A DNA stretch of 64,000 nt from an uncultured Bacilli bacterium (lineage in GTDB: Bacteria; Bacillota_I; Bacilli_A; RF39; UBA660): contig CANRPF010000004.1 of NCBI GenBank assembly GCA_947632375.1, positions 1,019 to 65,018 on the forward strand, given 5' to 3'. The notes under the pieces were generated by a model, which was not told the origin of the DNA, made no database searches, and worked only from the letters and a program-made list of their open reading frames with translations. Both the position numbers and the translations under genes were made by a program. Shown here piece after piece: positions 3,128-49,793 of this stretch. How positions within the stretch are numbered: the first letter of the stretch is position 1; every line of letters begins with the position of its first letter.

Positions 3128-4000
3128 TTAACCGCCTATTTTAGTTGTTGCAGCAGTTCTGAAGCACACAGGAACCCCAAGCGAGCCGGCAGCCGTGGCG
3201 TCGTTGGCATGCCCGTGGTAGTCGACATAACAGCAGCAAGTAGAGTTACCCGAGTCCACAGAACACAACCACCAGCTGCAGCGACTGCCACCATTTCCTT
3301 TACCTTTAATTCTATGTTTCCAGCTATTTGCGAACAATGGATATTGAACAGCCTGTGTTGAACCATAACCTTTTTGTCCCCAAACATTAGTACCAAATAC
3401 TTCATATTCACTTGGAAGCCATAATCTACCCATTGGATACCAGTGCCAACCAGTTGATTCAGTTAAATCTTGTCCTACCCCTTGCTGATGTCCACGTCTT
3501 TCCAAAATATTGATTTTATTTATAATTACATCTTTTACTTCTTGTGGTAGTTTTTCATAAATAGTTTCAAGGTCTTGATAAATGTGAGACTGTAACCACG
3601 GAACATCAGTTCCTTTATCTGGATTTTGTGCTTCTTCAAAAAAAGCGTTATTAGTAGCTGTTAAGTTCCATTGATGTAAGTCATTTAAGCAATCTCTACT
3701 AATCCAATCAATATGATGTGGAACTGGATTTAAAGCAGTTGTATCATAATCACCATGAACTTCTGTCCAACCAGTATTATAATGAGTATCAATACCAGCA
3801 ATTTCCATGATAACTTTTTCTTCGCCGACTTGAATTTCCTTAAAGTCTCCAACTCTAATATCACTATAGTCACCATCTCTACTCATATTTTTCAGGTCAT
3901 CCCATGTATAAGCAGATAAATCTCTGCCTTCATACATCTGAGGGCCTTCCATGCCAATATTATACTCCTTGCCATTTAATGCCAATTTTGTAATTGCCAT
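3128..4000 (-). CDS. DGR target protein, putative receptor-binding C-type-lectin-fold (DUF6273-like) protein
   Basis: LWLPSEYEVFG, YPLF, WWL.S and GVPVCF motifs; VR at C-terminus; last gene of tail module. Confidence 0.85.
   Translation of the reverse strand: MAITKLALNGKEYNIGMEGPQMYEGRDLSAYTWDDLKNMSRDGDYSDIRVGDFKEIQVGEEKVIMEIAGIDTHYNTGWTEVHGDYDTTALNPVPHHIDWISRDCLNDLHQWNLTATNNAFFEEAQNPDKGTDVPWLQSHIYQDLETIYEKLPQEVKDVIINKINILERRGHQQGVGQDLTESTGWHWYPMGRLWLPSEYEVFGTNVWGQKGYGSTQAVQYPLFANSWKHRIKGKGNGGSRCSWWLCSVDSGNSTCCCYVDYHGHANDATAAGSLGVPVCFRTAATTKIGG
3165..3282 (-). repeat. DGR variable repeat (VR)
   Basis: 18 mismatches to TR, all at TR adenines on the coding strand. Confidence 0.96.
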
Positions 4001-16830: not shown

Positions 16831-16855
16831 AAAAAGGAGGACATAGGTCCTCCTT
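16831..16855 (-). terminator. Terminator after tape measure gene
   Basis: AAGGAGGAC/GTCCTCCTT stem + T-run on minus strand. Confidence 0.65.
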
Positions 16856-19800
16856 ATCTTCTATTATTGAAAGCATGCATTGAAGCCGCATTAACTAGAT
16901 TATTCAAAGCATCTTCAATTTCTTTAGAATCACGTACACCTGGGAACTCAGCTGTAATATGAACATTCTGGTCAACTGCATTATTATTATTTGGATAATT
17001 ATTATTAGTAATTCTTCCTAATCCACCTAATAAACTGCTAGTATGTATTGATGTGGCAGTATTTAAGTTATTTACTAATTCATCCATATGACGAACAATA
17101 TTAACAGCAGATAAAATATTCTTTGTATCTTCCTGATTTAATACTAATTCTTTTTCATGTAGAATTGCGGCCTTGCCGCCACCGCCAGCCCACTCACCAG
17201 TATAACCACCGGTGTCAAAATGAGATAGTGCAACATAACCACTTCTACCATTTAAAGAAACACGTACTGGATATTCTTTGCCTTTATAATAACTTACAAT
17301 CTTTGCATTACCAGGCGGAAAATCTTTAACTGGTAATGCGTTAATTGCAGATGGGGTAGAATACACATAATTTGGATGAATCCAATGAGTATCTCCCTTA
17401 TTATATCCTTTACCAGAGGCCCCTTTAAATAGATAAGAATTAGATGATGGACTTCCAGTTCTAGTGCCACCAGACCCGCCTGAACTAGAGCCTCCTCCAG
17501 ACGAACTATTACTACTGCTACCACTAGAAGAATTACTTCTATTTTGTAATACATTAGCACCAATATTACTACTTGCAGAAGATTCATAACCATCGTCCCA
17601 ATCAGCATCAGCATTAGCGGCTTGTCTAGCTTGAGCCAACTCATAAGCAGCTTTAGCAGCTTCTTTTGCAGCTTCCATGACTCTATCATATTCATCTTTC
17701 ATATCTTCCAAAGAAGAAATTACATCTTTAATAGCTGGTATTAAATCATCTCTATATTTAGAAATTAGATTATCATTTTCATCAATTAACTCCCTAGTAT
17801 CATCTGTACCTTCTGTAATGCCATCTTGCAAAGCCTCAAAAGTAACGTCAGCTGCATCCTCAACATCACTTAAATCATTTTGATATTCTTGAGTAGTTTC
17901 ACTTAATTCACTAAAGGCTTCAGAACAAACTGGAACTAATCCACCTTCACCGGCTATTTTTTCAGCCATATGTTCAACTCCAGAATCCCATTGAGGAATT
18001 AAGCTATTCATCAACTCATCTTGCTCTTGCTGAGACATGTCTTTAAAGTTTTGAACATCTGTATCATATAACAAAGCTAAATCATTAAACGCAGAATCAT
18101 ATAGATTACTTCTAATATACTCATTTTCTGTGATAATACCAATTATTAATTCGCCATACTGTTCAGTCAATAACTGTTGCTTCTTTAGTCTTGCTTCTGG
18201 ATCAAGAGTAGGATCAAGATAAAGCTCTTTTACCTTGTCTTGAAATTCCTCATACATGCTGTATAAGTCATCAAGATTCTGAACATATTGATTCTTATCA
18301 AAATTATATAAATCATTCTGAGCCTGTAACAGTTCCTGTCTCTTTTGTTCCAATTCATCTTCATCAGAAACATACTGATATGTATAATTACCCTGAGAGT
18401 CTCTTCTTAAACGCAAGTTAGTCTTAGTTTGTTGAGCATTCTCTAAAGCTAATTGCTTTAAGGTTAATTCATACATCATATTAGCACGCTCAACATCATA
18501 CTCAGTCAATTTATCTTTCTCACGTAAGTAAGCTAATTGCTGGTCCATCACGTCCTTTAATTTTTGTTGAGCAACTAAATCATCGGTATTTGCAATACCT
18601 TCAAGATATTTATTTTCTAATTCTTGAAGTGCTTGCATTTTATTGATATTATCTAAATATCTTTCTGAGTTCTTATTGATTAAATCCCATTCTTCACCAA
18701 CATAGTCTAATCCTAAACCGCCAGTAACTTTATCATTTAATTTATCAAAAATCTGTTCAATTAAATTACTATATTTATCAATAATATTCTCAACTGATTC
18801 TTCAACCTTGTCATTTAATTCTTCTAATGAATCTTGCCATTCTTCAATCCATTTCTTGCGGGCTTCAGGGTCAGTTTCTAACTTCATCATTTCATTAGCA
18901 TAGTTGACTCTTTCACGTAAGAACTTTAATTCTTCATTATTATTAGTTTGTATTTGTCTATAATACCTATCCATATCTGCATAAGCATCATCACCATACA
19001 ATAAGCCAACTAAGTTCATGTCATGATTCAATAAATCATTGATATATTCAAACTGGTCTACATGGTCATCAAATTCATCAATAGCTTGGTCAATCATATC
19101 AAGATAAGATTCTTTAATTTCTTCCTCTAAATCTTGCATATCTTCAAGCTGATTCATTAGTTCAGTATAATAATTTTGTAAATCTTCTAATGCTTTTTGT
19201 GAATTTTTACCATATACATCACTATATCCATCATCAGCTAGGGCTTCGACTTCATCCATTGTCTTATTGACTTGCTCAGTTAACGCTTCAATAGGGCCAG
19301 TTCCTGTATCATATGTTTCAAAATATGAGAAATAATCATCTAAGTTTGCACGTGCATTACCAAGAATATCATCATCTTTAATTTCATCTAAGACTTTGCG
19401 GCGGAACTCGTTAAAATCACGTTCAGCCTCGGCCATGTCAAGACGAATTTCGACCTCCGCGGTAAACTTCTTAATATTGATTTCAATTTGTCTGTCTACT
19501 GCATCCTCAATTTGGTCTTCTAAATCAAAGATTTCTGTTTTAATAGTGTCATATCTTTCGATATTCTTTTCTAACTCATCATAATCTTTTTGAGCTTGCT
19601 CGATAGTATCTTTGAATTTCTCCTGTTCCTCAGCAGACATTGCATTATACTGGTCAATTAAATTATTTACATAATCTAATTTAGCCTGTAAAACGGCAGT
19701 ATAATTAGTTAAATATCCCTCAGAATCAAATGTTGCACCTTCAGCAGCTAATGTATTTCTTAATTCAGCAGCTTCTTCTTTTTCTAGTCTAATCTTATTT

Positions 19801-22800
19801 TCATAAACAGCCTTTTGTTTTTCTAATATATCTAACTGTTCATTCAAATTATCTAATAAATCTTCTCCTGCAAGTTTTTCTTGGTCTCGCTGCACTCTTT
19901 CGAGACTCTTATCTAACTTTTCTACTTGCTGATTTATATCGTGATAGCGGTCTGCCTGTTTTTCAACATATTTTTCAACTGCGGGTTCTTTTCCGCCCCC
20001 GCCTCCTCCGCCGCCACTTTTACCTTTACTACGACGCGCTTTACCTGCGGAGCCTCCGCCATTCTTAGCTTGACTAAACTTAAAGCCTCCACCTGAAGAC
20101 TTTTTAGCAGATGTGACCTTTAAACTAAAAGCTGTATTTTCCTTAGTAGCAGTAGCTTCCATTGGCGCTGGCTCATAAGTAATACTAGGAATATTATACG
20201 TAACAGGCGTTCCAGTTAATGGGTCAACACTATCTACACTTTCTGTGGTTGTATGAGCAATAGCACCCATATATTCATGAGTTTCATTAGCTGTTGTATT
20301 GACTTGTTCAACTTCAGCATCGACACCCATAGAAGCTAAATAATCTGTAGCTTGTGCTGCTGACATGCCGGCAGCATTTACCATGTTACTTAATCCATTT
20401 AAGAATCCAGTGTCATCTAGGTTAGCACCAATTTCAATATCATTAAAGTTTTCTCCATTGATAATCTGGTTATTTAACCAAGCAACATCTTCAGCAAACT
20501 GAGCAGTATCAATCCCGCATTTTACAAGTATATCTTGGCCAGCCCTAGATAATAACTCATCATATGCTTCAATATCTCCATCAATAGCTTTATGCATTAG
20601 TTCAAGATTATCTGCACTCTGCAAAAATTCATCAGATAATGAACTTCCATTCATATCCAATAAATCAGCATAAGAATCTCTTAAATCATCTATAATTTCA
20701 GCCTGGTCTTGCAGGTCTCCGCTTTGCAAAGCTGACAACCAATCTTCATAATTATCTGCAACTTCTTTACAAGCATCATCAAATCTTAAAATAGCCTCAG
20801 CTACGTCTTCAGCAGCTTCTTCATCTTCTTTTAAACTATCTGCTAGTTCAGTACCAATACCTTCACTACTATCTGCAACATCTTGAATAACATCGCGTAA
20901 ATCAGATAATGCTTCTGGGTCTATATCTTCATCTAAAGTATTTTGTAATTCTTTTAACCTTTCATTGAAAGCTTCAAGACTTACATCACCTAAATGTTGT
21001 TCTAATTCATCTATTGTATCATAAGATGAAAGTAAGGTGCGTTCCCATGCAAGAGCAGAATTATTATTAGCATCAATTAACTCCGATGAATTTGCAAAAG
21101 CATCTCCAAGCCCGCCTACCATATCAGCAATCTCTTGCAAATCATCTGGGTCCATAAACCCAGTTTCTAATTCTTGTCTCCACTTATCTATTTTTAATGC
21201 GGTTTCCTCTGACTGGTCACCTAAAGCCACTATTAAATCAATTTGCTGTTGAACTTCTTTTGTATTATAATGGCCTTTTCCGTCCTCACCAGTATACATT
21301 CTATTTGTTGCAAGGGTATCAAAATCATAACCCTGTACTGCTTGAATGTTTGAGTTTTGAGTTCTTAGAATATTGATCTGGTCTCTTAGAGTTCCAATGA
21401 AATCTTCTTGCACTGCTTTCTTTAAATCTTCTGCACTTCGCGTTAATTTATAAGTGCCATCAAGCATTTGTACAAAATAACTTTGACCAGCCTCGCCTAA
21501 TTTGGCATAATCTTCAGCACTGATGGTATCGCCAGATTTTAACTTATTTAATGTTTTAGATAATTCAGTAAAGTTTGAAGCCGCGGCGGCCGCGTTCTTT
21601 GCAGTATCATACAAGGTATTGTCAAATTCTTCTAGGCCCTCTAATGAACCTGAATTATATGCATCAATAGCCTCGTCTAATTTACCCATAGCCGAAGCCC
21701 GCGCCAATGTAGCTGCAACAAATTCTTGGTCATTCAAATTTAATTCAGATTTATCAAGTTTATCAAAAGCATCTTGCACAGATAATGCCATATCTTTAGC
21801 AATATTATCTGATGCCTCTTGCCATGAATCTGAAATAGTGCTAAGTTTATCTTGCAACTCCTCAGGAGTAGTGCCAAGTAACTCTAATTCAGATTGTAAA
21901 CTACTAACATCTAATTGACCTAAATTTTCGGCTTCTTGCTGAGTTAAAGAACCTATGTCATCAATTCCAGAAGCAACATTAAATAATGCTGTTTTTACAT
22001 TTTCACTATCCCCAGCTACTTTACCAATAGACTTAAATGCTTCAGCATAATCTTCAATACTATCTTTAGCTTGGTCTTGAGCTTCTTGCGCTGCTAAATA
22101 TGCTCTAGCAACTTTATCTGAAATTTGAATCCATTCTCCATCTTTCAGATAAGAACCCATATTATCGCCCTTATTTTTTGAGCGTTTATATCCCATAGCT
22201 TCAGCATAGGCTTCTTGGATTTGTTTATCAGTCTTACCTCCACTAAACTTACCCTGGTCTGCGTATCTATTAGAAGTTTCTTTATTGATTTCTTCTATTT
22301 TATCTCCAAGAACACTTGCTAATTGATTGCTAAATTCAGCATTAGCATATTGAGTATCCTCTAATAATGAGGTTCCAATAGATTCTCCTAAAATCTTATT
22401 ACTTTCAGTATTAGCTTTAACTGATTCTGATAAAGAAATTAACTCTCCAGTATTCTTTAATAAAGCATCTGCTTCTAATTGAGATATATCAGCACTCTCC
22501 ATTAAAGTTTGACTATTTTCAAGAATACTTGTACCATTTTTATCAATAGCATCTAATACTCTATTCATGCTCTCGCGAGATATTTCAGTACCAGTATAAG
22601 TTTCATCAACCATACCTGGAATAAAATATTTGTTCTTACGCACAAAATCTGTAATATCAGACCTATTTTGAGCGTCATTAGAAGTCATACTACTTAATAA
22701 TGATGCTCGATACATTGTAGCTACTTTTTCAGATTGAGCTTTTAATAAAGCGTCTTGACCTGCTTGAGAAATTTCAAGCATTCCATTGTCAGATTGGATA

Positions 22801-25670
22801 TAACTTGCTAATTGAGGATAAGTGTCTAATAATTCTAATACCTGATTATTAACTTCATTAAGTTTTTCTTTCCATTCATCAGTACCTTTAATTAAAGTAT
22901 CTAATCCGTCTCTTGCTTCTTGATACTGACTTAAGGAATTTTTTAATTCATCATAGCTATTTTTAATTTCGTCATAAGCATCTTTAACTTCTTTAGCTGC
23001 GGCGGCCGCCTTCTTCGCAGCATCAGAGTCAGCATTATATGCCTTAACCGCAAGATAAGCACCAACACCGATTGCTCCTAAAACTGCAACTACAGCAGCT
23101 GCGGCAGCAGCAAAAGTAGCTAAACCTGCTGCGCCAACCCCTCCAGCCGCAGTGCCAGCTCCAGCCGCAGCCTCGCCCATGGCAGTTGCGCCGCCAGCAG
23201 CAGCAGATGTGCCTGTAGTTAAAGTTTTTAATGCGGGCAATAATTGCTTAGCTGCTTTTAAATTAGAGATAATAAGTGGTAAGGATACTAATAATGTTGA
23301 GGTAACTCTTTCTACTTTTTCTCCAGTAGATAAAGTTTCATCGCCAAGTGTTTTTATTATACCACTTGTCGTTGTTAATAACATTGTTATAGAAGTCAAA
23401 CCATTAACAGCTTCAGAAATAGCCTTTTGTCTTGCTGCTCTGTTGATTTCTAATTGCTCAATATTTTCTAGTGCATTTCGCTGTTGTACTAAAGTATCTA
23501 ATTCGCCATTTTCAATCTGCTGTCTATATGTTAAAGCCTGATTTGCATTGTTAATACTTTGTTGATTTGACTGTAATAATTCTTTTTGTTCTATGATTGA
23601 ATTATTGATTTCTTCTTCACTTAAATCAACACTTCTAATTGTCTCTAATATATTTTCATATTGTCCATCAATTCCAAGTAATGTTTCAGATAAATTACTA
23701 TTTTCAGAAAAAATCTGCTCTCCAAGTTCTTGAATACGTTGATTATGTTTTACCTGTTCTTCTAATGGTAAACTACATAATTCAGTATACTCCAATAAAT
23801 CTTTTTGAGCTTGGACTTCTGTTTCTTTATATTCAAGACGATTTCTAATAGTTTGTGTACTTTCTTTTTCAGTAAATCCAATACCTTCTAGTAATTGACC
23901 ATAATTAGTAATACTTTGAATTTGTTGTTCTAATAAACCAATCTCTTGTTGTTGTGCTGTTAAAGCATTATATTGTTCAGAAGTTAATGCACTACGAACC
24001 TCTAATAATTGTTGAGCATATTTAACTTCTAAATCTACGGCAGAACCAGAAATAGTTTCACCCTGCGCGGCATGTGCATTGATAACATCTTGTTTCATTT
24101 GGATGGCATTATTATTAGCTTTCAATGCTTCCATATTTTGTATCTGTCTCTCAATAGCACCACCAATTTGGTTATTAAATACTTTAGCTACTAATGAACC
24201 AAAATATAAGAAACTAGCTCCTCCGCCACCAATACCTTGTAAGAAGTTATTAAAAACTCCTAATGCTCCTGTTAATGCTGAAGTAAAATCATTAACAGTA
24301 TCAGCATTAAACAAAATACTATATGTAGTTTCTGCTTCTGTTTTTAATTGCTGCAAATGAGCTTCAGTACTTTCCATATAAATATCTTGCTGGTCTTGTA
24401 AAGTACCCATAGCATTTGCAGATGTTTCTAATGCTTCATTATATGCGTCCCAGTTATCAAATAGCGCGAGTAAGTTGTTATACTGACGAGTTCCCGCCAT
24501 AGCCTGAGCCAAGAATACCTGCTGTTCACGAGACATTGTATTCCATTTATCTCCGACTTCCTCAATAACATCACCCATATCACGCAACTTATTATTTGCA
24601 TCAAGTACATTTACACCCATTTGAGCCATTTGCTCAGTATAATTATCAAGAGTAGTCTCAGTATCGAGACCAGCTTGAATATCTGACATACGAGCATATA
24701 CACTTCTTAATGCAACACCAACAGATTCAGGAGCTTGACGAGTAACTGAAATAATTGTTGCTAATTGCGCATTTAATTGGTCAACATCAACACCCATCAA
24801 GTTAGCTGCTGATGCAACTCGACTCATACCAACACTTAATTCTTCTAAGTCTGAAGCTGTTGTTGCAGCTACTGCTGCTAACTTATCTACATACAATTCA
24901 GCTTCATCAGCACTAACTTTATAACCGTTCCATACAGCAGTTAACTGCTCAGATACCGCTTGCGCATTTTGACCAGTAACGTTAGCTGCTTTTAATGTAG
25001 TTTCCGCTCTTGCAGCCACATCCTCGTCACTTAAACCTTGCTGATAATAAATCAAAGATGCGTTGGTATATGCCGTTGTGCTTTGACCAAGAGCCTTAGC
25101 AGCATTATTTGCCTTAACCGCAAACTTATCCATATCATCAGCAGATTTACTTGTAACTATTCTAATATCATTTAAACTTCTATCTAAATCTAATGTATAA
25201 TAATATGCTTTTTGAATAGAACCAGTAATATTATTAAATATACTTGAAGCAACTCCCCACTTGACAGTATTCGCCATTGAGGTTGCCATATCGTTTAATA
25301 ACTTACTACCTTGTTTTAATTGTAAATTTGTATTTAAAATAGATGAAGCAACTCTATTATAAGCCGCAGCGCCGGTAGCACCAGATGCCTCCATTGTGGC
25401 TTTTAAGTTAGCAACATTACCATATGATTCTTTAATACTAGAATTTAATCTACTTAAATCTAATTGTCCTAACTTACTATTCCATGCTTCATTTAATATT
25501 CCTTCTAACTGTTTTGCTGCACTCGCAGCTTCTCTTAATTCATTACTAATAGTACCAGATTTTATTGCATTTTTAGCTTCGTCTTGTACTTGTCTTAATG
25601 CCTGTGTGACTTCTGCTAATCCAGTTTTGTCAACAGTATAGCCAACTTGAACTTGAACTCTATTAGCCAT
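16854..25670 (-). CDS. Tail tape measure protein (2938 aa)
   Basis: TP901-type TMP core, long helical Ala-rich body, FDTGGYTG..AILHEKELVLN C-terminus. Confidence 0.92.
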   Translation of the reverse strand: MANRVQVQVGYTVDKTGLAEVTQALRQVQDEAKNAIKSGTISNELREAASAAKQLEGILNEAWNSKLGQLDLSRLNSSIKESYGNVANLKATMEASGATGAAAYNRVASSILNTNLQLKQGSKLLNDMATSMANTVKWGVASSIFNNITGSIQKAYYYTLDLDRSLNDIRIVTSKSADDMDKFAVKANNAAKALGQSTTAYTNASLIYYQQGLSDEDVAARAETTLKAANVTGQNAQAVSEQLTAVWNGYKVSADEAELYVDKLAAVAATTASDLEELSVGMSRVASAANLMGVDVDQLNAQLATIISVTRQAPESVGVALRSVYARMSDIQAGLDTETTLDNYTEQMAQMGVNVLDANNKLRDMGDVIEEVGDKWNTMSREQQVFLAQAMAGTRQYNNLLALFDNWDAYNEALETSANAMGTLQDQQDIYMESTEAHLQQLKTEAETTYSILFNADTVNDFTSALTGALGVFNNFLQGIGGGGASFLYFGSLVAKVFNNQIGGAIERQIQNMEALKANNNAIQMKQDVINAHAAQGETISGSAVDLEVKYAQQLLEVRSALTSEQYNALTAQQQEIGLLEQQIQSITNYGQLLEGIGFTEKESTQTIRNRLEYKETEVQAQKDLLEYTELCSLPLEEQVKHNQRIQELGEQIFSENSNLSETLLGIDGQYENILETIRSVDLSEEEINNSIIEQKELLQSNQQSINNANQALTYRQQIENGELDTLVQQRNALENIEQLEINRAARQKAISEAVNGLTSITMLLTTTSGIIKTLGDETLSTGEKVERVTSTLLVSLPLIISNLKAAKQLLPALKTLTTGTSAAAGGATAMGEAAAGAGTAAGGVGAAGLATFAAAAAAVVAVLGAIGVGAYLAVKAYNADSDAAKKAAAAAKEVKDAYDEIKNSYDELKNSLSQYQEARDGLDTLIKGTDEWKEKLNEVNNQVLELLDTYPQLASYIQSDNGMLEISQAGQDALLKAQSEKVATMYRASLLSSMTSNDAQNRSDITDFVRKNKYFIPGMVDETYTGTEISRESMNRVLDAIDKNGTSILENSQTLMESADISQLEADALLKNTGELISLSESVKANTESNKILGESIGTSLLEDTQYANAEFSNQLASVLGDKIEEINKETSNRYADQGKFSGGKTDKQIQEAYAEAMGYKRSKNKGDNMGSYLKDGEWIQISDKVARAYLAAQEAQDQAKDSIEDYAEAFKSIGKVAGDSENVKTALFNVASGIDDIGSLTQQEAENLGQLDVSSLQSELELLGTTPEELQDKLSTISDSWQEASDNIAKDMALSVQDAFDKLDKSELNLNDQEFVAATLARASAMGKLDEAIDAYNSGSLEGLEEFDNTLYDTAKNAAAAASNFTELSKTLNKLKSGDTISAEDYAKLGEAGQSYFVQMLDGTYKLTRSAEDLKKAVQEDFIGTLRDQINILRTQNSNIQAVQGYDFDTLATNRMYTGEDGKGHYNTKEVQQQIDLIVALGDQSEETALKIDKWRQELETGFMDPDDLQEIADMVGGLGDAFANSSELIDANNNSALAWERTLLSSYDTIDELEQHLGDVSLEAFNERLKELQNTLDEDIDPEALSDLRDVIQDVADSSEGIGTELADSLKEDEEAAEDVAEAILRFDDACKEVADNYEDWLSALQSGDLQDQAEIIDDLRDSYADLLDMNGSSLSDEFLQSADNLELMHKAIDGDIEAYDELLSRAGQDILVKCGIDTAQFAEDVAWLNNQIINGENFNDIEIGANLDDTGFLNGLSNMVNAAGMSAAQATDYLASMGVDAEVEQVNTTANETHEYMGAIAHTTTESVDSVDPLTGTPVTYNIPSITYEPAPMEATATKENTAFSLKVTSAKKSSGGGFKFSQAKNGGGSAGKARRSKGKSGGGGGGGGKEPAVEKYVEKQADRYHDINQQVEKLDKSLERVQRDQEKLAGEDLLDNLNEQLDILEKQKAVYENKIRLEKEEAAELRNTLAAEGATFDSEGYLTNYTAVLQAKLDYVNNLIDQYNAMSAEEQEKFKDTIEQAQKDYDELEKNIERYDTIKTEIFDLEDQIEDAVDRQIEINIKKFTAEVEIRLDMAEAERDFNEFRRKVLDEIKDDDILGNARANLDDYFSYFETYDTGTGPIEALTEQVNKTMDEVEALADDGYSDVYGKNSQKALEDLQNYYTELMNQLEDMQDLEEEIKESYLDMIDQAIDEFDDHVDQFEYINDLLNHDMNLVGLLYGDDAYADMDRYYRQIQTNNNEELKFLRERVNYANEMMKLETDPEARKKWIEEWQDSLEELNDKVEESVENIIDKYSNLIEQIFDKLNDKVTGGLGLDYVGEEWDLINKNSERYLDNINKMQALQELENKYLEGIANTDDLVAQQKLKDVMDQQLAYLREKDKLTEYDVERANMMYELTLKQLALENAQQTKTNLRLRRDSQGNYTYQYVSDEDELEQKRQELLQAQNDLYNFDKNQYVQNLDDLYSMYEEFQDKVKELYLDPTLDPEARLKKQQLLTEQYGELIIGIITENEYIRSNLYDSAFNDLALLYDTDVQNFKDMSQQEQDELMNSLIPQWDSGVEHMAEKIAGEGGLVPVCSEAFSELSETTQEYQNDLSDVEDAADVTFEALQDGITEGTDDTRELIDENDNLISKYRDDLIPAIKDVISSLEDMKDEYDRVMEAAKEAAKAAYELAQARQAANADADWDDGYESSASSNIGANVLQNRSNSSSGSSSNSSSGGGSSSGGSGGTRTGSPSSNSYLFKGASGKGYNKGDTHWIHPNYVYSTPSAINALPVKDFPPGNAKIVSYYKGKEYPVRVSLNGRSGYVALSHFDTGGYTGEWAGGGGKAAILHEKELVLNQEDTKNILSAVNIVRHMDELVNNLNTATSIHTSSLLGGLGRITNNNYPNNNNAVDQNVHITAEFPGVRDSKEIEDALNNLVNAASMHAFNNRR

Positions 25671-41975: not shown

Positions 41976-43121
41976 TCATCCTTTCTTTTTATTTCGACAT
42001 TCTTTACATATGCTATAATAGCCATCTTTACTTGTCTTATTTTTAGAAAAGAATCTATTATGCGCTAATTTAATTTGTCCACATCTACTACAACGTTTCC
42101 ATTTACCTTTTTCAACCATAGTATAATGCCAAATTAAATAATCATCTTGAGCTTGTTCCGCAAGTAATTTAGGAATTTTATTGCGCCACAAGGAAGATAT
42201 ATATTCAACAGAATGTTTAATACCGTGCTTTTCATATAATAATTGTTGGATTTCTACATTTTGCTTACCGTCAATTTTATAAATCAATAAATCATAATAT
42301 AATGGATACTTGTCTTTTAATGTTTTTTCTATTAAATTATCTAAATCTTCCATCATAAAATAAGAATCACTCCAAAATTTGCCATAACTATCTTCTTTTA
42401 AACGAGAATAATTACACAAAAGAGCAGAAACATGTTTTGGGTCAAATAGTGTTATAATACCATCGCTTTTAACCTGTCCATCTTCTGTTATTGTCACATG
42501 CTCATTCATATTTAAACCAGAAAAACTTTTAGTCCCGTTAATAAAACACATGGGCTGCCGCGCGGAGTTCTTAATTACATATTGGTCCTGCCGCATTTCA
42601 ATAAGTTGTTTCTTTAATAAATACTTCTTTTTACCCATAGCTCTTTTCTCTTGTTCTTCTACAACTGAGATAGCTTCTCGTAATTCTTTTAAAGCTGGTA
42701 TAGAATCAATATCTTCTTGAGTGATACTAATTTTTGGCGTAAAAATTATGTTTTTATCATTAGCTATCATATTATATATACCATCTTCACCATTCTCTAG
42801 CTGGCAAGCTAAGCCTTGGAAAGAAGTTTCCCGCTTATTAACAGTTATCATCCTATTGTCTGTTAATATCTTTTTCTGTTTCCGCTCTTCTTTATCCATG
42901 GCAAAAATAATATAATCAGCTAATATCTCTAAATATCTTGGGGTTAATTGCTCAGGAGGCGTTTCATCTATAATTAACTTAACCAATTCATTTCGCTCTT
43001 TTGGGTCAGTTAAAGAGAAATCTAGTTTCCGCACTGGCTTAATATCTTCTTCTGCCATATGATTCTCTATTGTTTCCCCATCAAGAGCAAGAATGTCTTT
43101 TTCATCTTCTACATTTGTCAT
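41976..43121 (-). CDS. Putative transcription factor (sigma region-4-like HTH + C-terminal Zn ribbon)
   Basis: KIDGKQNVEIQ...YISSLW; CSRC...CKEC; own sigma-A promoter at 43152-43179. Confidence 0.5.
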   Translation of the reverse strand: MTNVEDEKDILALDGETIENHMAEEDIKPVRKLDFSLTDPKERNELVKLIIDETPPEQLTPRYLEILADYIIFAMDKEERKQKKILTDNRMITVNKRETSFQGLACQLENGEDGIYNMIANDKNIIFTPKISITQEDIDSIPALKELREAISVVEEQEKRAMGKKKYLLKKQLIEMRQDQYVIKNSARQPMCFINGTKSFSGLNMNEHVTITEDGQVKSDGIITLFDPKHVSALLCNYSRLKEDSYGKFWSDSYFMMEDLDNLIEKTLKDKYPLYYDLLIYKIDGKQNVEIQQLLYEKHGIKHSVEYISSLWRNKIPKLLAEQAQDDYLIWHYTMVEKGKWKRCSRCGQIKLAHNRFFSKNKTSKDGYYSICKECRNKKKG

Positions 43122-46595: not shown

Positions 46596-46820
46596 AGCAG
46601 GTAATAAACCTGCTTTTTAATTACCACCAAGCGCGGTCGCCGCTGCCCGAAAAATTATATCACGTGTGAGGCAAGTTTGTCAAGAAGAAAATAAAAAAAT
46701 TTTAAGTAATTATTTTTGCTCCCGAAATGAAAAAAATTTAAAAAAGTTGTTGACAAATACGTTTGTACGTGCTATAATGTATTCAGAGTTAAGGAGAACA
46801 ACAAAACAGGAGGAAACAAA

Positions 46821-46907
46821 ATGATGTGGGACGTGACTTGTGAAGAACTGTATTGGGCAGAGGCGGAGATAGAGGAACTTATGAAGGAAATGAGTGAGAA
46901 GGCATAA
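46821..46907 (+). CDS. 28-aa acidic peptide (MMWDVTCEELYWAEAEIEELMKEMSEKA)
   Basis: Own promoter and GGAGG RBS. Confidence 0.6.
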   Translation: MMWDVTCEELYWAEAEIEELMKEMSEKA

Positions 46908-47004
46908 GCCTTCCGCTCCACCTTAAAAAAATAAAAAAGTTATTGACAATATAAGAAAAAAGTGTTATAATAAATACAGAGTTAAGGAAAGAGAGGAATT
47001 TTAA

Positions 47005-47169
47005 ATGAGAGAGCAAGAAATGGAAAATATGGCTGAAAGACTTCAAGAGTTACTTAAGGAATGTGAAGAAAAAGGCTTTAAGGTAAGAGTATCTTCTTTG
47101 CTTAATGAGGGAGATGAAATCACTGAGGCGGTTACATCAATGGATTATACACAAATTACTTTGTGGTAA
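47005..47169 (+). CDS. 54-aa early protein, paralog of 52955..53134
   Basis: Promoter + RBS; LLK.C..K...VR.S..L..GD.ITE motif. Confidence 0.7.
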   Translation: MREQEMENMAERLQELLKECEEKGFKVRVSSLLNEGDEITEAVTSMDYTQITLW

Positions 47170-47219
47170 CTCTTGACAAATTAAAAGAAATATGCTATAA
47201 TAAATACAGAGTTAAGGAA

Positions 47220-47380
47220 AGCGGAATAAAAGCCCACTTCCAGCAGAAGGTGGCGACGGTGGAGAAGCCGAAGGCGCATAGTTGCCGCAGTAAGACCATG
47301 TAAGAACTTCTTCCGCTATATAAATAGTAGGGCAAAGACAACGCACAACCCTTGAAAGTGCGGGTGGACTGGACGAGGGT
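47220..47380 (+). ncRNA. Multi-pseudoknot structured RNA, copy 1
   Basis: Own promoter; shares core and covarying helices with 47872..48023. Confidence 0.75.
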
Positions 47381-47404
47381 AAAATAAACCAAAGGAGAAA
47401 AATA

Positions 47405-47662
47405 ATGAAAAGATTTTTTGTAACAATGTTGTTTCTAGTAGGTTTTGTTGGTTCTATGTTAATTGAAAATACTTATAATAGAACCGCAAGAGTTTATAGT
47501 GTAAAGCATGGAGTAACAACCTTCGAGGATAAGACAGGCAACCTTTGGGAGTATGAAACTACAGATTTTGAACAGGACAGCGAAGTTATTTTGATTATGT
47601 TCACAAACCACACAGACAATAATATTCATGATGATGAAATTATAAAAGTAATGGTTAAATAA
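47405..47662 (+). CDS. Early protein with N-terminal signal/TM segment
   Basis: Hydrophobic N-terminus; RBS. Confidence 0.7.
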   Translation: MKRFFVTMLFLVGFVGSMLIENTYNRTARVYSVKHGVTTFEDKTGNLWEYETTDFEQDSEVILIMFTNHTDNNIHDDEIIKVMVK

Positions 47663-47871
47663 GCAGGGCACAAACCCTGCTTTTCTTGCGGTCGGCGCGA
47701 GCACGTACGCTACTCTTCGTGCGAGCGCCGAGATTCTATTATACCACGAGGCTAGCAATTTGTCAAGAGAAAAATAAAAAATATTTTTTAAAAAATTTTT
47801 CCCAAAATGCTTGACAAGTTAGACTGGCCGTGCTATAATGTATTTACAAGGTAAGGGAAAACCTCAAAATC

Positions 47872-48023
47872 CGACGGTGTAAAGCCCTCTCCCAGCAAGC
47901 GGTTATTAGTAAGTCCACGCAAAGTTGTGGCGAATCAAAGAAACATCAAAATCCGCTCCGTCGTTAATAGTAGGGCAAAAACAACTTGTATCCCTTGAAA
48001 GCAAGTGTGGACTGGGCGAGGGA
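47872..48023 (+). ncRNA. Multi-pseudoknot structured RNA, copy 2
   Basis: Own promoter, no RBS-led ORF; covariation with copy 1. Confidence 0.75.
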
Positions 48024-48099
48024 ATTTTAAAAAAAATGCTTGACATGTTTAACAAAAAGTGTTATAATAAGAGTATCAAAGGAAAAGGAGATAACAACA

Positions 48100-48261
48100 A
48101 TGACAAAGACTAGAGAAGCACTGATTGACGAAATGATTAGAATGTATGGTTTTGAAGCTGAAGAAACTATTGAATTTGCTGAACTTGCGGAAAGTCTTCC
48201 CGCCTCTACTTTACATGACTACCTGTTAGAAGTTCTGGTTGATTGCCACAAGCATTTTTAA
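48100..48261 (+). CDS. Early hypothetical protein (MTKTREAL...)
   Basis: Promoter + AAGGAG. Confidence 0.7.
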   Translation: MTKTREALIDEMIRMYGFEAEETIEFAELAESLPASTLHDYLLEVLVDCHKHF

Positions 48262-48329
48262 AAAAATGCTTGACAACGTATAGAAAAAATGGTATAATTA
48301 AACCATCAAAAGAAAAGGAGAAAATAAAT

Positions 48330-48545
48330 ATGAAAGAAAACATAAGGTACACAATTTGGATAGTAAAAAGGAATCAGCACCTGTACTTCAATAATGTAAA
48401 GGAAGCCTTTAGAACTTTCTATAAGCTGGCTAGACTTGGAGAGTCTGTATCACTCAGCGACAGAACTATGAAAAATATATTCCGGAGATGTCGAATGTCA
48501 GCAAATGACAAATATGAACAAGGCAAAATCAGATACTACAATTAG
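48330..48545 (+). CDS. Early hypothetical protein (MKENIRY...)
   Basis: Promoter + AAGGAG + terminator. Confidence 0.7.
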   Translation: MKENIRYTIWIVKRNQHLYFNNVKEAFRTFYKLARLGESVSLSDRTMKNIFRRCRMSANDKYEQGKIRYYN

Positions 48546-49331: not shown

Positions 49332-49793
49332 ATGACAAAGGCTTTAGTTTTTGATATGGATGGCACTCTGGCAGACCTTTATGGAGTGGATAATTGGTTA
49401 AATGAACTGAGAAGCGAAAATCCTCGCCCTTATGAGGTTGCTTGTCCGCTTTATAATATGGAAATCCTCAATGCGATTCTTGTAATCTTAAAAGAATGTG
49501 GTTGGGAAATTGTAATAACAAGTTGGTTAGCAAAGGAAGCTAGTAAAGAATATGATATGAAAGTTAGAGAAGCGAAAAAGGCTTGGCTTGAAAAATATAA
49601 CTTCCCTTATGATGAAATTCATCTTGTAAAATATGGAACAACCAAAGCGGATTGCACTAGAAAAAAAGGTGGTTTTCAAATTCTGGTTGATGATAATGAA
49701 AAAGTCAGAAAAGGCTGGACATTAGGAGATACAATTAACGCTAATGAGGATATAATTCCTAGCTTGCTGGAGCTTTTGGGCGCGGAAGTGTAA
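49332..49793 (+). CDS. HAD-superfamily phosphatase, 5'(3')-nucleotidase-like
   Basis: FDMDGT motif I, ITS, K, LVDD. Confidence 0.8.
   Translation: MTKALVFDMDGTLADLYGVDNWLNELRSENPRPYEVACPLYNMEILNAILVILKECGWEIVITSWLAKEASKEYDMKVREAKKAWLEKYNFPYDEIHLVKYGTTKADCTRKKGGFQILVDDNEKVRKGWTLGDTINANEDIIPSLLELLGAEV

Follow-up and report, generated by a model that had tools for sequence, protein, structure and literature searches.

Two diverged copies of one structured RNA

The DNA analysed here (the window) is a stretch of 64,000 nucleotides (nt) from an uncultured Bacilli bacterium (GTDB lineage Bacillota_I; Bacilli_A; RF39; UBA660), taken from contig CANRPF010000004.1 of assembly GCA_947632375.1, and it carries the portal, terminase-like and virion genes of a phage on its minus strand. 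Its plus strand carries a structured RNA in two diverged copies, at 47220–47380 (copy 1) and 47872–48023 (copy 2). A first-pass annotation, made from the sequence alone, had placed both copies correctly, and they align over their full length, with a mean column identity of 77% concentrated in shared blocks. All the pairings listed in that annotation, corresponding to helices P1, P2 and P4 and to pseudoknots PK1, PK2 and PK3, are present in both copies (Table 1), and its picture of a compact RNA with three pseudoknots and conserved joiners is borne out by compensatory changes across about 30 relatives. We consider it almost certain that the two copies represent a real and novel family of structured RNAs encoded by phages. 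Each copy lies, as annotated, behind a promoter of its own, the end of which is separated from the start of the element by 19 nt for copy 1 (47220) and 33 nt for copy 2 (47872).

Four of the sequence blocks described as common to the copies can be aligned (AAAGCCC.CT.CCAGCA, AATAGTAGGGCAAA.ACAAC, CCCTTGAAAG and GTGGACTGG.CGAGGG). However, a further block, AGTAAG.CCA.G, is found after the P3 hairpin in copy 1 and before it in copy 2 and, since it stands on opposite sides of this hairpin, it is not homologous between the copies. The apical domain of copy 2 is rearranged and lacks the GTAAGA joiner of the family, and copy 2 was not detected by a covariance model of the 5′ domain (R2). Natural variation was also found at this locus. 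Two DNA runs contain a strain variant of copy 1 in which A to G at 47248 is accompanied by T to C at 47308, a compensatory change from A-T to G-C in P2; the 3′ domain is untouched among the changes listed for this variant, which leave aside 21 further substitutions and 4 indels. In run X9, a DNA contig of 2180 nt joins 47348 to 47992, skipping 643 nt, and thus contains only one hybrid copy, with its junction in the conserved 3′ domains, without the open reading frame (ORF) of 85 amino acids (aa) behind copy 1, the promoter of copy 2 or the 5′ domain of copy 2.

Table 1. Features of the two RNA copies and of their immediate surroundings in the window. Scores are those of covariance models R1 (3′ domain) and R2 (5′ domain).
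Feature	Sequence	Positions	Strand	Remarks
Promoter of copy 1	TTGACA-17-TATAAT	47173–47201	+	12/12 sigma-70 consensus, TG extension
Copy 1, whole		47220–47380	+	Canonical 5′ domain, class I 3′ domain, elongated apical hairpin; R1 91.9 bits, R2 64.1 bits
Copy 1, P1	AGCGGAA/TTCCGCT	47220–47226/47311–47317	+	
Copy 1, PK1	GCCC/GGGC	47232–47235/47330–47333	+	
Copy 1, PK2	TCCAG/CTGGA	47239–47243/47369–47373	+	
Copy 1, P2	GAAG/CTTC	47246–47249/47307–47310	+	Encloses the variable apical domain
Copy 1, joiner	GTAAGA	47290–47295	+	Within the P2-enclosed region, 47246–47310
Copy 1, conserved joiner	AGTA-GGGC-AAAGACAA	47326–47341	+	Carries the 3′ strand of PK1; AGTA and AA.A invariant in the family
Copy 1, P4 hairpin	CGCAC/GTGCG	47342–47362	+	Loop AACCCTTGAAA carries the 5′ strand of PK3, 47348–47354
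Copy 1, PK3	ACCCTTG/CGAGGGT	47348–47354/47374–47380	+	P4 loop with 3′ tail
85-aa ORF behind copy 1		47405–47662	+	Hydrophobic segment at the start (by eye)
Terminator-like hairpin after the 85-aa ORF		47663–47690		By eye
Promoter of copy 2	TTGACA-17-TATAAT	47811–47839	+	12/12 sigma-70 consensus, TG extension
Copy 2, whole		47872–48023	+	R1 88.2 bits; P1, P2, P4 and all three pseudoknots kept
Copy 2, P1	CGACGG/CCGTCG	47872–47877/47958–47963	+	
Copy 2, PK1	GCCC/GGGC	47884–47887/47973–47976	+	
Copy 2, PK2	CCCAG/CTGGG	47891–47895/48012–48016	+	
Copy 2, P2	AGCGG/CCGCT	47898–47902/47953–47957	+	
Copy 2, P4	CTTGT/GCAAG	47985–47989/48001–48005	+	
Copy 2, PK3	TCCCTTG/CGAGGGA	47991–47997/48017–48023	+	

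The strand order of the family, which is supported by covariation, is P1-PK1a-PK2a-P2...P2′-P1′-PK1b-P4-PK3a-P4′-PK2b-PK3b. P1 is followed by an asymmetric internal loop of about 20 nt (consensus GTAAT.AGGTCACTCTCCGCAGA) carrying the 5′ strands of PK1 and PK2, and the apical domain forms, in most members, a three-way junction composed of CAAAG, a small hairpin, the P3 hairpin and a near-invariant GTAAGA joiner. After P2′ and P1′ come a joiner TATA..A...AGTA, the 3′ strand of PK1 and then AAAGA(CAAC), and the 3′ part consists of the P4 hairpin, the loop of which provides the 5′ strand of PK3, followed by GTGTGGA and the 3′ strands of PK2 and PK3. PK1 (4 base pairs, bp) pairs the internal loop with the A-rich joiner, PK2 (5 bp) pairs the same loop with the segment behind P4, and PK3 (6–7 bp) pairs the P4 loop with the 3′ tail. 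PK1 and PK2 have one continuous 5′ strand and PK2 and PK3 one continuous 3′ strand, so the three pseudoknot helices could stack into a single knotted core.

Relatives were sought by exact-pattern scans and with R1. Among 36 pattern matches in metagenomes, 31 were true members and the other five were chance matches; eight IMG/VR loci were also members. The class I members in IMG/VR are L001, L030 and L101 (the elements of the latter two being identical), and the class II members, with the same 5′ domain and joiner and a different 3′ hairpin, are L294, L298, L300 and L304. The complete 127.6-kb phage record with L304 also holds L311, a copy that has diverged much further ("class III"). As judged from these sequences, the family comprises three subclasses. 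Members mostly have a length of about 145–170 nt, with one of 210 nt. There is one copy in the complete 109-kb record holding L101, and there are two in the window and two diverged copies in the 127.6-kb record. For the analysis of covariation we used an alignment of 28 distinct full-length sequences (A4), leaving out the truncated L269, L285 and L289 and merging identical sequences (L101 into L030; L274, L284, L287 and L290 into L262), and an alignment of 25 better-aligned 5′ domains including the class II members (A5).

With the full model, including the pseudoknots, 88.0% of the 1066 cells of A4 are paired, versus 72.8% in shuffles (none of 500 reaching the observed value) and 32–40% in a control with slid partners. 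The homologues keep the predicted pairs: PK1, PK2, P4 and PK3 are 96–100% paired in A4, with compensatory changes at 12 of 21 pairs. PK1 is 100% paired and three of its four pairs are changed on both sides (GGTC/GACC, GCCC/GGGC, GCCC/GGGT and GGTG/CACC). The pairing GCCC/GGGC, described as invariant, is indeed present in both window copies, but it becomes GGTC/GACC or GGTG/CACC in relatives. PK2 is also 100% paired, with four of five pairs changed on both sides (CTCCG/CGGAG, TCCAG/CTGGA, CCCAG/CTGGG, CCGTG/CACGG and CTCTG/CAGAG), and so is P4, which varies freely (three of five). For PK3 (96.4% paired; CCCTTG/CGAGGG and GCCTTG/CGAGGC), two of the seven pairs are changed on both sides, the other five having been fixed by the search pattern. 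In A5, P1 (82.9% paired; five of seven pairs changed on both sides) and P2 (88–90%; three of four) vary freely, the small hairpin P2a (GCC/GGT and GGC/GCC) is 76–87% paired with one of three pairs changed on both sides, and PK1 is again 100% paired (n = 25; three of four). The four class II members rebuild the same plan with other sequence, and L311 does so with new letters throughout (by eye: P1 CACGGG/CCCGTG, PK2 TCGCG/CGCGA, P4 GCCGA/TCGGC and PK3 GGGGA/TCCCC). A coding origin was rejected, because every sense frame is interrupted by stops in 27 of the 28 sequences and lengths differ by non-multiples of three (150, 151, 152 and 153 nt); in nine of the 28, neither strand has an open frame.

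Members of the family are rare: only three IMG/VR contigs match the class I pattern. In a collection of species-representative genomes, a related class I pattern yielded nothing real and a single chance match (L293), and R1 identified no credible member in 150 other genomes of the family of the host bin; a match in G026 (31.3 bits with R1) was rejected as AT-rich and probably coding DNA. A blastn search of 46900–48400 against 50,697 phage records returned one irrelevant match, 53 nt of promoter-like sequence in a small virus record. The matches listed for the loose patterns CCTTGAAAGN{4,7}GTGGAC and ACAACN{5,9}YYTTGAAARN{3,8}GTGGA were mostly due to chance and were filtered with R1 and regular expressions, the pattern GGGCAAANACAACN{14,30}GTGGAC gave 21 matches, only L001 being genuine, and a further viral scan added six chance matches to the known members. 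The RNA appears to be specific to phages.

Known RNA families and the literature

The inability of the first-pass annotation to match the element by eye with hammerhead, twister, pistol, hepatitis delta virus (HDV) or glmS ribozymes or with riboswitches is in agreement with our searches, since no Rfam 15 family was found on any copy. The 4227 models of this release cover hammerhead, twister, twister-sister, pistol, hatchet, HDV, glmS, riboswitches, ROOL, GOLLD, raiA, tmRNA, RNase P and 6S. At the gathering score, the whole window gave only RT-2 and one tRNA, both away from the copies, and 20 member loci gave only tRNAs, beside the element. With E values up to 10, seven weak matches were obtained for 47100–48150, none on either copy, and nothing overlapped the element on its strand in 10 member loci. 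Three conserved strings (in DNA and RNA letters) retrieved only chance primer-like matches from the literature, and no description of the RNA was found with them or by topic. A set of 10,006 uncurated candidate viral RNAs (PMC10690425) may list the motif unnamed. The RNA holds as new with respect to Rfam 15 and the searchable literature.

Type III antitoxins are characterized by tandem direct repeats of about 34–45 nt, which are cut into units by a co-transcribed endoribonuclease of the ToxN/CptN type. The suggestion of a type III antitoxin-like mimic made in the first-pass annotation finds no support in either feature. Within 46800–48400, tandem repeats are confined to an A/T run of a promoter spacer and to one ORF, which contains a repeat of 9 nt, with none in either RNA, and there is no conserved adjacent toxin gene, the 85-aa ORF having no Pfam or PHROG match and the downstream ORFs being unrelated across 28 elements. 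We therefore rejected membership of the ToxI/CptI-like antitoxins. A link with the reverse transcriptase (RT) of the window was also rejected, because it lies 45 kb from the RNA and a search of three records, among them the complete 109-kb one with L101, gave no PF00078 (RVT_1) match.

The RT itself is a 434-aa ORF at 672–1976 on the minus strand (RVT_1; phrog_1423), the start of which is overlapped by the RT-2 RNA (RF03077, 61.7 bits) at 1879–2090, and a DUF6273 protein is encoded nearby at 3128–4000 on the same strand. The segment 672–4000 (minus strand) looks like a cassette of the diversity-generating-retroelement type beside tail genes.

Genomic surroundings of the RNA

The copies behave as discrete RNA genes. 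Promoters were seen by eye upstream of nearly all relatives, usually followed by a polypurine leader and often by a variable hairpin before P1, and what comes behind the element varies. Of 20 loci scanned, 7 (L030, L272, L273, L279, L280, L291 and L266) have a tRNA (Rfam match) 4–16 nt behind the element, a whole tRNA array being present in L291, and in L261 the tRNA is 77 nt behind the element. In L277, L298 and L311, the RNA is directly followed by a terminator (a GC-rich hairpin and T-run, identified by eye). A ribosome binding site (RBS) and an ORF follow copy 1 and several relatives, and the next promoter follows copy 2 and L001. The nearest downstream ORFs of the 28 elements are unrelated, with one weak but plausible pair (L263/L278); two other short matches between them corresponded to spurious frames across downstream tRNA genes. 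The 85-aa ORF has no counterpart conserved behind other copies. Copy 2 had been annotated as lacking a downstream ORF on its own transcript, but no terminator separates it from the next promoter and ORF, and the argument for a trans role drawn from this claim is therefore weak.

The tRNA matches directly behind the RNA in L030 (13247–13348, minus strand), L272 (1939–2040) and L273 (1339–1440) are 102 nt long; as judged by eye, their anticodon is GCT and their variable region is unusually long. ARAGORN predicted no tRNA in the window, L001, L030 or L101, although the Rfam tRNA model does match beside the element of L030. On the element itself, neither ARAGORN nor this model detected the cloverleaf or tRNA-like domain of a tRNA or tmRNA. 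In L258, L285 and L286, a common motif (approximately TCCAACCC.TT.CGGA) is found 15–40 nt behind the RNA, at the place occupied by the tRNA in other loci, and it may be another small RNA. The tRNA match of the window, at 50842–50901 on the plus strand (50.2 bits), corresponds to a tRNA-like gene of 60 nt with acceptor, D and T arms and with 2 nt, versus 13 expected, in the anticodon region.

The region 46900–48400 belongs to a block of short ORFs on the plus strand, nearly all of which have their own perfect sigma-70-type promoter, and a scan of the region found 11 promoter-like sites versus 4.6 expected. Within the 1.4 kb between 46943 and 48298 (plus strand) there are five perfect promoters (TTGACA-17-TATAAT, with TG and preceded by A/T-rich tracts), and each of them leads into a very short unit. 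On the minus strand, a 12/12 promoter (47766–47738) leads into a GC-rich hairpin (about 47693–47735) and the terminator-like hairpin of Table 1, and could yield an RNA of about 60–70 nt convergent with the 85-aa ORF. The loci of relatives have the same promoter-dense layout, including units consisting of only a hairpin RNA of about 50 nt (L030, about 13745–13690, minus strand; L300 and L304, upstream of the element). The window phage also encodes a sigma factor of its own (41976–43121, minus strand; phrog_5767, E = 4.7e-53). Since the small-ORF block lies on the plus strand behind host-type promoters and the phage has its own sigma factor, the RNA probably lies among the early genes, which the host polymerase would transcribe.

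Certain proteins are encoded repeatedly within a few kb of the element: a HAD phosphatase-like ORF was found in 15 of the 36 member loci and a DEDDh-exonuclease-like ORF in 13, and two ORFs without assignment in 11 each (the window being counted). These phages are related, so we interpret this recurrence as synteny and not as a sign of partnership. In the window, the HAD-type phosphatase (49332–49793, plus strand) has a DMDGT motif and weak matches to polynucleotide-kinase phosphatase and 5′-3′ deoxyribonucleotidase families, and the ORF at 51635–52351 (plus strand; phrog_20187) has DEDDh-like exonuclease motifs by eye. The structural block contains an ORF of 2938 aa (16854–25670, minus strand).

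Possible roles and comparison with known systems

Because a terminator or a tRNA directly follows some relatives and the downstream genes are mutually unrelated, we tentatively favour a role in trans, and we assign a probability of about 45% to the reading that the RNA is autonomous and acts in trans, as opposed to being a cis leader, a ribozyme or a riboswitch. The RNA would be transcribed early and strongly by the sigma-A RNA polymerase of the host from its own consensus promoter. Its 3′ end would be set by an intrinsic terminator or by RNase P, which cuts the 5′ leaders of tRNAs and would here act on that of the tRNA 4–16 nt behind. The RNA released would be discrete, abundant and stable. 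It would act in trans while the phage takes over the host, and its knotted core would form, together with the invariant unpaired purines, a surface or pocket that specifically accommodates a protein of the host or phage, or a small ligand.

Several observations weigh against this reading or the evidence for it. Transcript ends, stability and abundance are all deduced from the sequence. Each copy is the first element behind a promoter, which would also fit a cis element, although nearly every gene of these phages has its own promoter. The presence of two diverged paralogues in the window phage and in the genome G154 is as expected of a cis element serving separate transcription units, and lambdoid phages have two put or nut sites; furthermore, since the run X9 variant has a single hybrid copy, one copy is enough. 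Many copies run into an RBS and ORF without a terminator and would therefore be 5′ leaders unless they are processed. Because ACAAC, CCTTGAAAG and GTGGAC were prescribed in the scan patterns, ascertainment explains part of the invariance of these blocks and of five PK3 pairs, and the alignment cells are not independent events, because many sequences come from few related assemblies; nonetheless, several pair types per helix occur in different lineages. Nested minimum-free-energy folds, which cannot include pseudoknots, are unremarkable (z = -1.21 and 0.05 for copies 1 and 2, respectively).

Some of these points would suit a cis-acting, promoter-proximal leader, which would make RNA polymerase resistant to termination, as put of HK022 and EAR of Bacillus do, or shield the RNA behind it (tRNA arrays or small mRNAs) from decay. 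The element is promoter-proximal, as an antitermination RNA would be: every copy comes first behind a strong promoter with varied cargo (tRNAs, ORFs or the next unit), and the two diverged copies of the window and G154 serve two adjacent units. Untranslated tRNA arrays, as in L291, are a kind of transcript known to need antitermination in rRNA operons, and the P4 loop (CCCTTGAAAG) may bear a faint likeness to the boxA of Firmicutes. However, the boxA-like letters are paired in PK3 and covary, unlike a protein-bound single strand, and the unit of copy 1 offers little to antiterminate, as it consists of a single 85-aa ORF. Polypurine leaders stabilise the mRNAs of Bacillus phages, and the 5′ ends here already have such a leader. 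No copy matches Rfam, among the models of which EAR is presumably included. The terminators directly behind three members can be read either way, but, with a new promoter following at once, a self-contained gene fits these loci better. We therefore regard a cis-acting leader as unlikely. A self-cleaving ribozyme, which would cut the primary transcript at one defined position and might thereby release the RNA from the leader on its 5′ side or from a tRNA or mRNA behind it, would account for the complexity of the element, which packs three pseudoknots, a junction and many unpaired purines that do not vary into about 150 nt, and the phage setting beside tRNAs is one in which small ribozymes are common, such as the HDV-like theta ribozymes of gut phages (PMC10879173). 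Nevertheless, no known ribozyme model matches, a ribozyme could not make the mature 5′ end of the tRNA, because the gap to it varies from 4 to 16 nt, and there is no evident need for cleavage, since RNase P or terminators already provide ends. The strand order, A-B-C-D-D′-A′-B′-E-F-E′-C′-F′, is also unlike the plans of HDV, twister, pistol, hatchet and glmS, and a ribozyme seems improbable.

A ligand-binding aptamer is less probable still, whether as a riboswitch timing early transcription or as an abundant sponge for a small molecule, for instance one of the nucleotide second messengers used in host defence. The compact pseudoknotted core with conserved joiners resembles many aptamers, some copies lie 12–25 nt before an RBS, and the element would be expressed early from a strong promoter. 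Against this, no riboswitch model matches, the downstream genes have no common function, with tRNAs, terminators or promoters behind other copies, inspection by eye revealed no alternative pairing through which an expression platform could switch, and we know of no precedent for an RNA sponge in this sense. We consider it very improbable that the RNA mimics a type III antitoxin, as a decoy for a defence protein, or serves as template for a phage RT, like the noncoding RNA units of UG27. A decoy would be one form of trans-acting RNA, the window phage has an RT with an RT-2 RNA, and the UG27 units, as described in 10.64898/2026.09.22.753630, have about 149–167 nt, an asymmetric internal loop and a pseudoknot and occur in gut phages. 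But the tandem repeats and conserved neighbouring toxin of such antitoxins are missing, as set out above, the distance of the RT and the complete 109-kb record without a PF00078 match speak against a template, the copies are single or double and do not form arrays beside an RT, and the UG27 units are described as highly diverse in sequence, whereas this family has long conserved blocks.

RNAs of this size with three pseudoknots supported by covariation, a multi-helix junction and long invariant joiners are mostly ribozymes, aptamers or ribonucleoprotein cores. This one often heads tRNA operons, is phage-specific, has perfect early host-polymerase promoters and is absent from Rfam 15. It is doubtful, but conceivable, that it represents a new catalytic or ligand-binding class used in host takeover, as a ribozyme, an aptamer "sponge" or a protein decoy disarming host defence or a tRNA-directed nuclease; two diverged paralogues per genome would then provide dosage or split specificity. 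Its small size suits crystallography or cryo-electron microscopy (cryo-EM) and simple biochemistry (cleavage, ligand binding and protein pull-down), and it offers a tractable entry to the old question of the role of stable non-tRNA RNAs in phage tRNA clusters.

Among such RNAs are the "species 1 and 2" RNAs of phage T4, small stable non-tRNA RNAs of its tRNA gene cluster that are released by tRNA-processing enzymes and have no assigned function. The RNA described here would resemble them in being a small stable non-tRNA RNA co-transcribed with phage tRNAs, but it lies at the head and not at the end of the cluster, in phages of another host phylum, and no relationship in sequence or structure is expected. 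ROOL and GOLLD, large RNAs of phages and Firmicutes, often adjoin tRNA genes. They are likewise phage-borne, structurally ornate and without an assigned function, and are the subject of a cryo-EM preprint (10.1101/2024.12.08.627333), but they are about 580–800 nt long, versus about 150 nt here, their Rfam models match no copy, and there is no sign of multimeric cages in this family. HK022 put and Bacillus EAR are also promoter-proximal folded RNAs accepting any downstream cargo, with two per phage in the case of put (putL and putR) and a pseudoknot in EAR; however, put consists of two simple stem-loops, and some members of this family have a terminator and a new promoter at once behind them. 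Membership of the HDV-like ribozymes, which have a nested double pseudoknot and cleave at their own 5′ end, was rejected, since their strand order, P1-P2-P3-P3′-P1′-P4-P4′-P2′, is not that of this RNA and no HDV-type model matches. The theta ribozymes of this type (PMC10879173) are small double-pseudoknot RNAs of gut phages located directly beside tRNA genes; they lie downstream of the tRNAs and are about half the size, whereas this RNA lies upstream of them and has another strand order. Finally, the UG27 units share with this family the gut phage setting, the size and, by their description in 10.64898/2026.09.22.753630, a main hairpin with an asymmetric internal loop and short conserved motifs, a basal hairpin and a pseudoknot. 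That same description sets them apart, as highly diverse sequences arranged in arrays beside an RT and two accessory genes, from the present RNA, which occurs in one or two copies far from an RT or in phages without one.

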